A DNA stretch of 64,000 nucleotides from an uncultured Chloroflexia bacterium (lineage in GTDB: Bacteria; Chloroflexota; Limnocylindria; Limnocylindrales; CSP1-4). A program made the translations under genes and the position numbers. The DNA lies in assembly GCA_963720495.1 (NCBI GenBank), contig CAVRFU010000013.1, forward strand, positions 32,273 to 96,272. The letters are read 5' to 3'. Below, in pieces: positions 15,974 through 32,325 of this stretch. How positions within the stretch are numbered: position 1 is the stretch's first letter; every line of letters starts with the position of its first letter. The notes beneath the pieces are model-generated. The model searched no databases. It saw only the letters and a list, made by a program, of their open reading frames with translations, and was not told the DNA's origin.

Positions 15974-16477
15974 TCAGCGGGTGCCGTACTGGTAGGTCTG
16001 CTTGACCAGTCGGAGGTACACGAACGTCTCCGTGTCGCGCACCCCGTCGATCGCCCGCAGGCGCTCGGCCAGGAACACCAGGAGGGCGTCGTTGTCCTCG
16101 CAGACGGTCTCGATCAGCAGGTCGTACGAGCCGGCGGTGATGACCACGTAGTCCACCTCCGGCATGGCCGCCAGGTGCTCGCTGACCTCGATCAGCTTGT
16201 CGCTCTCGCAGCGGATCCCGATCATCGCCATCTGGTGGAAGCCGAGCTTGAGGGGGTCGGTCACACCGACGACCTGGAGGATCCCGCGCTCGATCAACCG
16301 GTTGGTCCGGGCCCGGACCGCGGCCTCGGACACGCCCAGATCCGCGGCGATCTGGGTGAACGGGCGTCGGCCATCGGCCTGCAGGTGCTCGATGATCCGC
16401 TTGTCCAGCGGCGAGACGTCCTCACCGGACCGGGCCCCTCCGGGGCGAGCGCGCGGGGAACGGACCGGCATCGTCAT
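15974..16477 (-). CDS. Lrp/AsnC-family transcriptional regulator
   Basis: LDKRIIEHLQADGRRPFTQIAADLGVSEAAVRARTNRL HTH and RAM domain (VVITAGSYDLLIE). Confidence 0.93.
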   Translation of the reverse strand: MTMPVRSPRARPGGARSGEDVSPLDKRIIEHLQADGRRPFTQIAADLGVSEAAVRARTNRLIERGILQVVGVTDPLKLGFHQMAMIGIRCESDKLIEVSEHLAAMPEVDYVVITAGSYDLLIETVCEDNDALLVFLAERLRAIDGVRDTETFVYLRLVKQTYQYGTR

Positions 16478-16570: not shown

Positions 16571-17510
16571 TCAGACGCCGTCGTCGTCGAGGTCGAGGAG
16601 GGCGCCGGCGACGGCCTCGATCGAGTCGCGGGTGATCGGGTCGAGCACGAGCTGGACGTGGTCGATCCCCTGCCGGGCGAAGGCGCGCAGCGCGTCGGCG
16701 AGGGCCGCCGGGTCGCCGTCGACCGGCGGGATGGCGCGCTGCCTGCTGTCGCCCTGGAGCCGGCCCTCGCCGCCCGGCAGGCTGGACCAGCACGGCGACG
16801 GTCCGCTCGACCTCGGTCGGGTCGCGGCCGACGTCGCGGCACGCAGCGTCGACCAGGGCACGCACCGACGCGATGCCCTCCGGCCGGTTGCCGGTGTCGT
16901 TGTACCAGGAGTTCCACGAGTCGGCGTGGGCCATCGTCGTCCGGAGCATGCGCGGCCCGTTCGAGCCGATCATCAACGGCGGTCCGTCGGCGCGTGGTCC
17001 GCGCGGCAGCAGCTCGCAATCGCGGGCCTGGTACCAGCGCCCGTCGAAGTCGATGGCGCCCTCACGGAGGAGCGTCCGGATGATCGTGAACGCCTCCTCG
17101 AACCGGTCGATCCGATGGTCGTATGGGTAGCCGAACGCGCGGAACTCCGTCTCGTTCCAGCCGGCGCCCAGGCCGAGGACGAACCGCCCGCCGCTGATCT
17201 CGTCGATCGTGGCGGCCTGCTTGGCGAGCAGGGCTGGGTTGTGGAAGTTCGTACAGGCGACGAGTGGCCCGAGCTCGATCCGCGTCGTCGTCGCGGCGAT
17301 CGCCGCGAGGAGCGTCCAGGCCTCCCACGGACCGCGCGCCGGGCGATCCGGCCAGCGGTAGAGGAGGTGCTCGCCGACCCACACGGAATCGAACCCGAGG
17401 TCCTCGATCGCGCGGGTCATGTCGAGGATCTCCGACCAGCGGACCTCGCGCTCGACCTCCGGCAGCTGGATGCCCACCTTGAGCGGGCGGCGGGCGGCGG
17501 CGTTCGTCAT
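16571..17510 (-). CDS. LLM-class flavin/F420-dependent oxidoreductase; one apparent frameshift near 16780
   Basis: GFDSVWVGEHL, TTRIELGPLV, NPALLAKQAATIDEISGGRFVLGLGAGW. C-terminus continues in another frame (LADALRAFARQGIDHVQL). Confidence 0.88.
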
Positions 17511-17737
17511 CGGCCAAGGGTATCGGGCCGGGCGCGGCGTGGTGCACGGCGGCGGCGGCCGGCCCGTCCTCGCCACTCACGGATCCGGCTCGTGCACTGC
17601 GAGTCGGGACGACTTCCGCGGGCACGACGATGCGCTCGCGAGCGTGGCGGTGTCCGCCCCGGCGACCAATGCGGATCCCGTCGCCGCTGAACACGATCCA
17701 CGTTCGTACCAGGCGGAAACCAACGTGCGGACGCCCG

Positions 17738-17767
17738 TTGACAGCGGCGCCATCCGTCCCGCACCCT
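17738..17767 (+). promoter_or_regulatory. Putative sigma70-type promoter for the leader-lysE transcript
   Basis: TTGACA (17738-43), 18-nt spacer, CACCCT (17762-67), 9 nt before the leader ATG. Confidence 0.5.
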
Positions 17768-17776
17768 GCCCGCGAC

Positions 17777-17842
17777 ATGACCGCCACCACCCGCCACGCA
17801 CGACGACGCCAGCAGGGGCCCACCCGGGCCACCTCGACCTGA
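17777..17842 (+). CDS. Putative 21-aa attenuator leader peptide MTATTRHARRRQQGPTRATST
   Basis: Lies between a promoter-like motif and a terminator. Contains CGC-CAC-GCA-CGA-CGA-CGC (tandem CGA Arg codons) and six Thr codons. Confidence 0.55.
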   Translation: MTATTRHARRRQQGPTRATST

Positions 17843-17883
17843 CGCCGTGCGCCCGAGCGGGCGCCGACCACCAGTCCCGAGTG

Positions 17884-17912
17884 ACGCCCCGGCAGATGCC
17901 GCGGGCGTTTTT
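17884..17912 (+). terminator. Intrinsic terminator (attenuator) upstream of lysE-family gene
   Basis: acgccc-cggca-ga-tgccg-c-gggcgt followed by a T tract, 30 nt before the CDS start. Confidence 0.7.
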
Positions 17913-17942
17913 CTGTGTCACGACCCATCGAAAGGAGCTCTC

Positions 17943-18560
17943 GTGGATCCCGCGCTCGCGTTCCGCGGCTTCATCCTCGGCTTCACGATCGCGGCCGCCG
18001 TCGGCCCGATCAGCCTGCTGGTCATCCGCCGGACGCTCGCCCAGGGCCAGCTGTACGGGCTGGTCTCCGGCCTCGGCGTGGCCACCGCGGACGCGACGTA
18101 CGGTGCGATCGCGGCCTTCGGCCTGGGTGCGATCACGGATCTGCTGGTCAACGCCCGTCAGGTGCTCGGGCTCGTCGGCGGGCTCTTCCTCCTGTGGCTG
18201 GCGTGGCGGACCATCCGTTCGGTGCCGACGGAGGCCGCCACCGTCACGACTCGGCGCGGTGGCTACGCGGGCGCATACCTGTCGATCCTGGGGCTGACAC
18301 TGGCCAACCCGATGACGATCCTGTCGTTCGGGGCGTTGTTCGCCGGCCTCGGCGTGACGGGCGGCGCGACCGGTGATGCGGTTGCGGTCGTGGCCGGCGT
18401 CCTGCTCGGGTCGACCACGTGGTGGGTCGTGCTGACCACGGTCATCGGCACGGTCCGGACCCGCGTGACCCCGCTCTGGATCCACCGGATCAATCTCGTG
18501 TCCGGCGTGATCCTCGGCGCGTTCGCCGTCGTCGCGATCGCGTCTGCGCTCGTGGGTTGA
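17943..18560 (+). CDS. LysE/RhtB-family amino acid exporter
   Basis: SD aaaggag then GTG; GFTIAAAVGPISLLVIRRTL...G...GLGVATADATY and LTLANPMTILSF motifs; about 6 TMs. Confidence 0.92.
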   Translation: MDPALAFRGFILGFTIAAAVGPISLLVIRRTLAQGQLYGLVSGLGVATADATYGAIAAFGLGAITDLLVNARQVLGLVGGLFLLWLAWRTIRSVPTEAATVTTRRGGYAGAYLSILGLTLANPMTILSFGALFAGLGVTGGATGDAVAVVAGVLLGSTTWWVVLTTVIGTVRTRVTPLWIHRINLVSGVILGAFAVVAIASALVG

Positions 18561-31146: not shown

Positions 31147-32325
31147 CTATCGTCGATCTCCCGCCCGGGTCAATGACGGGACGATGAGCGCCTCCGTGAC
31201 GCGTGTTGCGGAACCTCCATCTGCGACGTCGAACGAGGCGGCCCGAAACCGCTCCACGCGCTCGAGATCGAAGACACCGGCCCGCAGGTACGCGGCCAGC
31301 TCCGCGGTCGTCTCGAAGATCGGGCCGGGCACGCCGGTCCGGTAGTCGAAGTAGAAGCCGCGCTCGCGCTCGTACGCCTCGTAGTCCGGCGCGAAGAAGA
31401 CCATCGGCCGGTGCAGCAGGGCGAACTCGAAGATCGCGCTCGAGTAGTCGGTCACGAGCACGTCGCTCACGAGCATCAGCTCGTTGATGTCGGGGTGATC
31501 CGAGACGTCGATCGCGAAGTCCGCGAGGTCCGGGCCGATCGGCGTGGCGGACCGGATGAACGGGTGCAGCCGGACGAGCAGGACGTGGTCCGCGTCGAGG
31601 GCGTCACGCAGGACCCGGAGGTCGAGGTCGTCCGTGGCGCGGGCGTCGGTGACGCTGTCGCCGCGGAAGGTCGGCGCGTACAGGATGACCCGGCGGCCGT
31701 CGGTCAGGCCGTATCGCTCGCGGACGGCGGCTCGCGTCCGGGCCAGGTGCTCCTCGCCGAAGAGCACGTCCGTCCGCGGGATGCCCAGGTCCGACCGAAA
31801 CCGCTCGAGCGGCTGGCGGAACGCCTCCGCGTAATGCGGCGCGGCGGTCTGCGAGGCGACGAGGCAGACGTCGTAGTTCGAGTGGATCCGGACCCGGCTG
31901 GCGAGCGCCTCGTCCACCCCGAACGACTTGTCCAGCACGCTGTAGCCGACCTTCTTGAACGCGCCGCAGGCGTGCCACGTCTGGACGATCGTCGTGCCCG
32001 GCCGCTTGCGGATCACATAGATCGGGAAGAAGTAGTCGTCCACGATGAACACCCGCGAGGTCGCCAGGTAGTAGCCGGCGACGACCGCGTGCCAGGCCGC
32101 GGCGATCCGGCCGCGGCCACCGACGCCCGGCCGGTGGGCGAGGGTCACGACCGGGATCCCCGGACGGCGCGCCGCCAGGTCGTCCGCGATGGCCGCCAGG
32201 TTGCCGCCGAGCCGCGGGGCGTGGGCGGTCGCGAGCACGACCCGCGAGCGGAGCGGCAGGCGGCGCCCGAACGCGAACGCCGCCCGGACGAGCACGATCC
32301 GGATCGTCAGCACGAGATCGTTCAT
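31147..32325 (-). CDS. CDP-glycerol/ribitol glycerophosphotransferase family (TagB/TagF-like)
   Basis: VDDYFFP, QTWHACGAFKKVG, GIPRTD, ILYAPTFRG, LHP, SDVLVTDYSSAIFEF, RGFY. Confidence 0.92.
   Translation of the reverse strand: MNDLVLTIRIVLVRAAFAFGRRLPLRSRVVLATAHAPRLGGNLAAIADDLAARRPGIPVVTLAHRPGVGGRGRIAAAWHAVVAGYYLATSRVFIVDDYFFPIYVIRKRPGTTIVQTWHACGAFKKVGYSVLDKSFGVDEALASRVRIHSNYDVCLVASQTAAPHYAEAFRQPLERFRSDLGIPRTDVLFGEEHLARTRAAVRERYGLTDGRRVILYAPTFRGDSVTDARATDDLDLRVLRDALDADHVLLVRLHPFIRSATPIGPDLADFAIDVSDHPDINELMLVSDVLVTDYSSAIFEFALLHRPMVFFAPDYEAYERERGFYFDYRTGVPGPIFETTAELAAYLRAGVFDLERVERFRAASFDVADGGSATRVTEALIVPSLTRAGDRR

Follow-up and report, generated by a model that had tools for sequence, protein, structure and literature searches.

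Classical leader-peptide attenuators are known from the amino-acid biosynthesis operons of Escherichia coli, with trpL, hisL, pheL, leuL and thrL as examples. Here we describe an element that resembles them and lies upstream of a LysE/RhtB-family transporter gene in a stretch of 64,000 nucleotides (nt) from an uncultured bacterium of the Chloroflexota (positions 32,273 to 96,272 of the forward strand of contig CAVRFU010000013.1, assembly GCA_963720495.1), referred to below as the window; coordinates are window positions, and features lie on the + strand unless noted. Among the closest described systems, the attenuator in the upstream open reading frame (ORF) of ilvB1 in Mycobacterium tuberculosis, which is experimentally supported, senses branched-chain amino acids for its own biosynthesis genes (PMC13236596), while the mycobacterial polycysteine leaderless short ORFs reportedly act on translation by unmasking a ribosome-binding site (bioRxiv 10.1101/834739). 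A literature search returned no report of glutamine codons in an attenuator, nor of a leader peptide before a LysE-family gene.

The element is very probably a ribosome-read attenuator. Within that broad class, we lean towards a classical leader-peptide attenuator with a leaderless ORF, which would be read at glutamine (Gln) or asparagine (Asn) codons and would govern read-through into the LysE/RhtB-family gene, a view drawn from the aligned sequences of relatives and from models of RNA folding.

The leader and its hairpins

The element begins with a promoter read from the sequence (17738..17767), consisting of TTGACA at 17738-17743, a spacer of 18 nt and CACCCT at 17762-17767. The pattern TTGACA-N17/18-(N)A(NNN)T is kept in nearly all leaders of the aligned relatives, and the -10 box of the window retains the A at position 2 and the T at position 6; a simple promoter scan overlooks 17738-17767 because this box is weak. 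Nine nt after it starts a small ORF of 21 codons plus TGA (17777..17842, with ATG at 17777, TGA at 17840-17842 and the peptide MTATTRHARRRQQGPTRATST), so that the message would be leaderless or carry a leader of 2 nt. Altogether 56 distinct versions of the leader were collected, with subsets of 37 used for helix statistics and 42 for peptide composition, and 55 in frame. In 55 of the 56, a start codon (ATG, GTG or TTG) is found 5-10 nt, mostly 7, past the -10 box, and in 55 of the 56 a stop codon in the same frame precedes the second hairpin by 5-11 nt, mostly 6 (6 nt in 31 of the 36 leaders scored, 5-11 nt in the remainder). The ORFs measure 18, 20, 21, 22, 23 or 24 codons and differ in length by whole codons throughout, the sole out-of-frame leader being that of L026, an assembly whose transporter gene is itself frameshifted. 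In the genome to which the window belongs (G000), the motif TANNNT ends 6, 7, 8 and 9 nt before the starts of long ORFs 244, 160, 79 and 67 times, compared to about 20 at background level, which indicates that leaderless genes are common in this genome; the 9 nt seen in the window fall in the tail of the distribution. The conserved frame and the spacing to the -10 box make it probable that the small ORF is translated, without a leader or nearly so; its translation had been supposed in a first reading of the window made without database searches (the sequence-only reading).

Three hairpins follow. P1 (17812..17835, segments 1:2) lies inside the ORF and has a core of GGCCC at 17817-21 and GGGCC at 17826-30, extended by AGG:CCU (-14.2 kcal/mol); it is 92% paired in the 37 leaders, with compensatory or wobble changes such as CCGC/GCGG, AGCCC/GGGCU and GGUCC/GGGCC. 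A further extension of P1, UCG:CGA, is doubtful, being 66% paired. P2 (17849..17864; -11.7 kcal/mol) starts 6 nt past the stop codon of the window, is 96% paired and shows a double change, GCGCUG/CAGCGC, in one leader. The sequence-only reading had drawn this hairpin as A (cgcccg, 17850-55) with B (cgggcg, 17858-63), and while the hairpin itself is real, we have redrawn it as GCGCCC at 17849-54 with GGGCGC at 17859-64 and a 4-nt loop, GAGC, because the original register leaves a loop of 2 nt. P3 (17883..17912) is an intrinsic terminator in which ACGCCCCGGC (17884-93) pairs with GCCGCGGGCGU (17898-908), leaving one bulged C, and TTTTT follows at 17908-12. The terminator with a T tract that had been proposed as C (cgccc, 17885-89) and D (gggcg, 17903-07) is thus borne out, with a predicted energy of -19.9 kcal/mol, 98% pairing and double changes at five pairs, for example from G-C to A-U in 17 of the 37 leaders. 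A terminator scan found one site here compared to 0.2 expected, and P1, P2 and P3 together have eight pairs with double changes; the observed values were reached by none of 500 shuffles.

The closest relatives of the window are metagenome-assembled genomes (MAGs) of Ca. Limnocylindria/Limnocylindrales from soil, within the Chloroflexota. Of 61 related genomes, 29 carry an ortholog of the transporter. When 401 genomes of the class were searched with a covariance model of the leader (R1), each genome with a match had a single copy, which in every case directly preceded the LysE ortholog, and the matches were limited to one Limnocylindria family, comprising the genus of the window and at least three other genera, with none elsewhere in the 401 genomes. 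Across 80 named loci, the leader accompanies orthologs down to about 55% identity and is absent at more distant ones, including those of Anaerolineae and Bacillota.

All parts listed by the sequence-only reading (promoter, 21-codon ORF, A, B, C, D, T tract, Shine-Dalgarno sequence and gene) are present at their positions, and the alignment of lysE upstream regions that it had suggested as a check finds leader and helices conserved in the 56 versions. Its general proposal of a translated leader-peptide transcription attenuator before a LysE-family gene is supported because of the conserved promoter, the in-frame small ORF, the hairpins and the terminator. Its choice of arginine as the signal, its inverted logic and its identification of the transporter with LysE/ArgO are not supported, as set out below.

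Glutamine codons and the proposed antiterminator

The 42 leader peptides were compared to the stop-free frames of the same DNA. Gln is enriched 4.6-fold, histidine 2.3-fold and threonine (Thr) 2.2-fold, glycine is depleted, and arginine (Arg) makes up 18.2% of residues compared to 18.8% in the stop-free frames (0.96-fold), which leaves the arginine signal that had been proposed for the window without a foothold in composition. The tandem CGA CGA CGC (17801-17809) taken as its sensor occurs in the window only; most relatives carry CGC CGC instead or lack a run of Arg codons. CGA accounts for a minor share of Arg codons (9%). The notion that a stall at the Arg codons leaves all three hairpins formed agrees with our models, and the Arg run is not conserved at the sensing position. 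Threonine, named as an alternative signal, has its enrichment in its favour, and the positions of its codons are not conserved.

The positions that are conserved belong to Gln. The two codons CAG CAG at 17810..17815 are proposed here as the regulatory codons. Counted back from the last base of the P1 5' arm, the codon whose first base lies 11 nt upstream is Gln in 48 of 55 leaders and Asn in another 5, and the codon at 8 nt is Gln in 48 and Asn in 1; the two positions together give 102 Gln or Asn out of 110, with synonymous CAG/CAA changes present at the Gln codons. A distance of 8 nt from the A-site codon corresponds to +11 from the P site, which is the unwinding edge of the ribosome. Holding the second codon in its A site, a ribosome would melt P1 exactly up to the last base of this arm. 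The Gln and Asn codons sit where a stalled ribosome would uncover one strand of an antiterminator. Such a stall would be read through the tRNA and not through the nascent chain, because the N-terminal part of the peptide upstream of these codons is variable.

The proposed antiterminator is formed by segment 2 (17823..17841), which includes the P1 loop, the P1 3' arm and the end of the ORF, as its 5' strand, and by the spacer from CAG to CGAGUG together with the 5' arm of the terminator (17872..17892) as its 3' strand. In a fold of the window that blocks the P1 5' arm and omits the still unsynthesised 3' arm of the terminator, 17823-29 is predicted to pair with 17886-92, 17830-36 with 17878-83, and 17839-41 with 17872-74; the Gln-stalled fold is capped by P2 and has an energy of -30.9 kcal/mol. 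If the P1 loop, the P1 3' arm and the 4 nt that follow are joined in a duplex to the 5' arm of the terminator, the mean energy is -13.1 kcal/mol, and the z-score of this duplex against shuffles is negative in 56 of 56 leaders (mean -1.58). The two partners also switch together by clade, with CGAGGG:CCCUCG in most leaders and CC-GGG:CCC-GG in the clade of the window. Modelled pairing probabilities between the terminator arm and segment 2, computed before the 3' arm of the terminator exists, average 0.23 over the 56 leaders in free RNA, 0.75 with the ribosome stalled at Gln and 0 with the ribosome at the stop codon; the corresponding values for the window alone are 0.03, 0.71 and 0. The energy to free the terminator arm, calculated codon by codon, is highest when the second Gln codon occupies the A site, reaching 7.2 kcal/mol over the leaders and 7.1 in the window, compared to an average of about 5 kcal/mol. 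Folding of whole leaders with ribosome masks was also tried; it was noisy and the fraction paired gave no crisp switch, the free-energy profile being more informative.

The switch that we propose would operate as follows. With the ribosome absent or arrived at the stop codon, P1 or the ribosome itself would withhold segment 2, P2 and the terminator would form, and transcription would end before the transporter gene. When Gln-tRNA(Gln) is scarce, the ribosome would stall with the CAG at 17810-12 or 17813-15 in its A site and its leading edge would cover exactly the P1 5' arm. The freed segment 2 could then pair with the spacer and the terminator 5' arm, giving an extended antiterminator stem with P2 as its cap, and read-through by RNA polymerase into the transporter gene would follow.

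The way in which the lineage charges its tRNAs may bear on why Asn is accepted next to Gln. In 16 related genomes, glnS exceeds the model cut-off in two, asnS in none and gatB in 15; in genome G000, glnS does not pass this cut-off, and the genome is 76% complete, so that its own absences are weak evidence. Since glnS is rare, asnS absent and gatB near-universal, the lineage is taken to charge both tRNA(Gln) and tRNA(Asn) by the amidotransferase route (GatCAB), which would explain the ability of Asn codons to replace Gln codons at the sensing position. This suggests that the signal is a shortage of amide-charged tRNA. We also entertain, with little confidence, the more specific idea that the leader senses GatCAB-dependent amide-tRNA charging and that the exporter might expel a glutamine antimetabolite, or an inhibitor of glutamine synthetase or amidotransferases, made by soil neighbours. 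Amino-acid-like inhibitors are proposed as substrates because such compounds would cause stalling of this kind; if true, the arrangement would be a resistance circuit that works without a transcription factor by sensing what the toxin does to the ribosome. As a separate observation on these genomes, a full-length gene for glutaminyl-tRNA synthetase scoring above 700 bits is present in G001 (contig C1, 498857-500434) and in G008 (contig C109, 410-1987), a patchy spread that could be due to either acquisition or contamination, and the remaining related genomes match the glnS model only weakly, below its cut-off, and depend on GatCAB.

Several points weigh against a switch read at the Gln codons. 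The modelled peak at these codons is modest, rising about 2 kcal/mol above a noisy background, in an RNA whose G+C content of 71% allows many alternative pairings by chance. Covariation in the antiterminator is thin, consisting essentially of one pair that switches between clades, and the part of the stem formed by the spacer and the ORF end is by itself no better than shuffles (z +0.18); as a separate helix this part was rejected, being seen only as a continuation of the stem between segment 2 and the terminator arm. Leaders carry only one to three Gln codons, and the conserved distance of 6 nt from the stop codon to P2 is accommodated by the model, not required. The window has a second energy rise of its own, 6.1-6.3 kcal/mol, at the last codon and the stop. 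Induction of an exporter upon amino-acid shortage has no obvious physiological logic. In addition, the leaders are related to one another, so that the counts given above do not represent independent events, and transcription start, translation and termination at the leader are all deduced from sequence.

There are several potential alternatives to the mechanism described above. According to the sequence-only reading, a ribosome at the stop codon would mask A, so that B pairs with C and blocks the terminator, and a stall at Arg or Thr codons would leave A:B and C:D formed, so that the exporter is made only when amino acids are plentiful. Such logic fits an exporter, and it would apply mainly to the clade of the window, where the B:C fold is not unreasonable in models of that sequence alone: once 4 nt of A are masked, the probability that the terminator arm pairs with the loop and 3' arm of P2 goes up from 0.02 to 0.88, an alternative fold that holds for the window and is not general over the leaders. 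The second energy rise in the window points in the same direction, although none is seen at the stop in the profile averaged over 55 leaders. The spacer of 6 nt between stop and P2, kept in most leaders, also counts in its favour. With this spacer and the stop codon in the A site, the first pair of P2 stands at +12 from the P site, just beyond the unwinding edge, and A is therefore probably not masked. The B:C helix itself fares poorly, as its key C:G pair is a C.A mismatch in 17 of the 37 leaders, it shows no covariation, 405 of 500 shuffles pair equally well, its duplex energy is no better than that of shuffles (mean z -0.42), and it is broken in the only leader in which P2 covaries. A version extended with the P2 loop (CGAGGGCG with CGCCCUCG), which forms in models of some species and of the window, likewise lacks covariation. 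Threonine enrichment would suit this logic; the background-level arginine with its unconserved CGA run does not, and the conserved Gln codons are left unexplained. Taken as a whole, we regard it as improbable.

Activation under excess of the substrate would also result from an arrest peptide of the TnaC/SpeFL type, in which the nascent peptide together with a small molecule, perhaps the substrate of the exporter, stalls the ribosome late in the ORF or at its stop and so blocks termination. The motif Q-Q-x-P-x-R-A recurs across genera and its Arg codon is always CGG or AGG, never GGG or UGG, which speaks for such a peptide; however, the codons for P-x-R-A are the P1 stem itself, and Pro has become Ser in two lineages with the pairing of P1 kept. 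The last three residues before the stop vary (RSS, RST, CSN, TST, ASI, YSI, VSLA and others), and the Ser codon among them is invariably UCG in most leaders, which indicates a constraint on the RNA and not on the peptide. The N-terminal half is variable too, and a stall at the stop would need the poorly supported B:C helix. Altogether, we consider an arrest peptide highly improbable. A further explanation, rather unlikely in our view, is that there is no ribosome-read switch, and that the small ORF and terminator represent a separate small gene, a small RNA or a constitutive dampener, with the transporter expressed by leaky read-through or controlled by a protein at the promoter or hairpins. 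No alternative pairing shows strong covariation, some relatives have short U-tracts (a few with UU), the leader has disappeared from several relatives that still have the gene, the ATC(C) conserved within the promoter spacer might serve as an operator, and a gene for an Lrp/AsnC-family regulator lies two genes upstream. There is, however, no room for a second promoter between terminator and gene (about 30 nt in the window, about 20-50 nt in relatives), and one would have to put down to coincidence the conservation of the frame, the exact position of the Gln and Asn codons with respect to P1, and a segment 2 that is complementary to the terminator arm in 56 of 56 leaders.

Transporter, neighbourhood and related leaders

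The gene downstream of the leader (17932..18560) consists of the Shine-Dalgarno sequence AAGGAG at 17932-37 and an ORF running from GTG at 17943 to TGA at 18560 that encodes 205 amino acids. The product matches Pfam LysE (3.7e-22). It had been taken for a LysE/ArgO exporter, and the equivalog model for that function (TIGR00948) gives only 35.4 bits compared to a cut-off of 213.65; the RhtB-type model TIGR00949 scores higher (58.8 bits) and is also below its cut-off, as are all NCBIfam scores, including those of RhtC (30.1 bits) and LeuE (24.5 bits). The transporter thus belongs to the broad Pfam LysE family only and scores nearer to RhtB than to LysE/ArgO. No solved structure of a relative was found.

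Regulators of the Lrp/AsnC family often control amino-acid exporters, and the gene for one in this neighbourhood occupies 15974-16477 on the - strand; the gene next upstream of the transporter is a divergent F420-dependent LLM oxidoreductase. The promoter spacer of the window (17744-17761) and that of relatives have in common a conserved (C)ATC(C/G) about 7-9 nt 5' of the -10 box, which may belong to an operator or to an extended promoter element. A scan of 17450-18050 with Rfam 15 gave no covariance-model match better than E = 1.5.

Several other elements were considered for the leader and set aside. A hairpin that would join the spacer CUGAGAGG locally to the terminator arm is 67% paired, has no covariation and is missing from the clade of the window. 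A binding site for a PyrR-like or ANTAR-like protein has only a superficial likeness, with no Rfam match. Recoding at the stop stimulated by P2 lacks a slippery site, and two leaders have a UAG stop, while a second ORF starting from an overlapping UGAUG has no AUG in the clade of the window. A his-type chain in which the P1 3' arm pairs with A would have only 4 bp and appears, by eye, too weak against A:B. Pairing of the 5' end of the message with the stop region is significant and covarying only in another clade, being neither present in the window nor general. In leaders of this sister clade (L017, L021, L029, L042 and others), the first 13 nt, AUGCAUCACGUCG, form a helix with a stretch, UCGACCUGAUGC, that spans the last codons, the stop and the 4 nt after it, with z-scores of -3 to -5 against shuffles and matching variants CGCGUC/GACGCG in L027 and AUGUCAG/CUGACGU in L026. 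After transcription of the ORF, the start codon at the 5' terminus would be shut off by such a helix.

The leader has been lost and the transporter gene kept in several relatives, of which two have the terminator only and several have nothing. L065 (CAVRGP010000006.1) retains TTGACA-N17-CACCCT without the small ORF, P1, P2 and most of the terminator, and in L010 the -35 box is fused to the spacer that precedes the terminator. Only the terminator is left in L028, where the transporter gene has an in-frame TAG. In addition, the transporter gene is frameshifted in four assemblies, within residues 134-144 in L026 and L027 and within residues 35-44 in L025 and L028, which could reflect either recurrent pseudogenisation or indel errors of long-read MAGs.

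Several hundred genes of genome G000 are probably leaderless, with TANNNT more than tenfold as frequent at 6-7 nt as at other distances. Three other leaders in this genome, all outside the window, also combine a leaderless small ORF with a following intrinsic terminator: MTHTQVSWNMCMRWRPRRAEDGV, before a MetY-like pyridoxal-phosphate enzyme (contig C1, 462685, +); MTSHVRSSAMCMPWRPHGGDTGR, before an ABC ATPase (contig C1, position 362530 counted on the reverse-complement strand); and MTRVTLACACSCRPSAKQGRWCI, before a rhodanese-like gene (contig C4, 346633, +). Their peptides contain MCM or CACSC motifs, and they look like attenuators of sulfur metabolism with cysteine or methionine codons, comparable to the mycobacterial polycysteine small ORFs. 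With three further leaders of this build, such switches appear to be in regular use in this genome.

Comparison with described attenuators

Like leaders of the trpL/hisL type, the element upstream of the transporter has a short ORF that is probably translated, candidate regulatory codons just 5' of or inside segment 1, pairings 1:2, 2:3 and 3:4 that are mutually exclusive in the models, and an intrinsic terminator that precedes the first structural gene; its stop codon, too, is positioned such that segment 2 would be covered by a ribosome that does not stall. It differs from them in the Gln and Asn codons, in preceding an exporter-family gene in place of a biosynthetic operon, in the leaderless ORF, in the extra hairpin P2 that would cap the antiterminator, and in its host, a member of the Chloroflexota. 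If the proposed reading is correct, attenuation would extend to an unreported signal, with Gln and Asn codons reporting on amide-tRNA charging, and to a class of genes not known to be under its control, the LysE/RhtB-type exporters. It would also reach the class Limnocylindria within the Chloroflexota, in which RNA regulation has hardly been studied.

The M. tuberculosis ilvB1 attenuator shares with the present leader, as proposed here, a translated upstream ORF with regulatory codons, alternative antiterminator and terminator structures, a Rho-independent terminator and a high G+C content, and in both cases masking is argued from the ribosome footprint (PMC13236596). Unlike ilvB1, the present leader does not precede biosynthesis genes for the amino acid that it would sense, and it is known from sequence and models. 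In mgtL/mgtP of Salmonella, the leader codons for one amino acid govern transcription of a Mg2+ transporter gene outside the biosynthesis of that amino acid (PMC3641672), as would be the case here for an exporter-family gene; there the codons are for proline, the leaders are long and combined with other sensors, the ORFs are led by Shine-Dalgarno sequences and the hosts are enterobacteria. TnaC and SpeFL provide the logic of activation in amino-acid excess that had been sought for this locus, with the ribosome held late in the leader ORF; however, they rely on conserved residues near the C-terminus of the peptide and on Rho, whereas here the C-terminal residues vary and the terminator is intrinsic (PMC8429421). 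The reason for inducing an exporter upon shortage of Gln-tRNA could, if such induction is real, reveal the true substrate of the transporter.

The mycobacterial polycysteine ORFs resemble the present leader, as proposed here, in having a leaderless sensory small ORF at the 5' end of an operon transcript and codon pausing as the signal; they differ in the codons that are sensed, and the canonical terminator with a U tract sets the present leader apart (bioRxiv 10.1101/834739). If the proposed reading is correct, leaderless sensory small ORFs, so far mainly mycobacterial, would also be in use in the Chloroflexota of soil.

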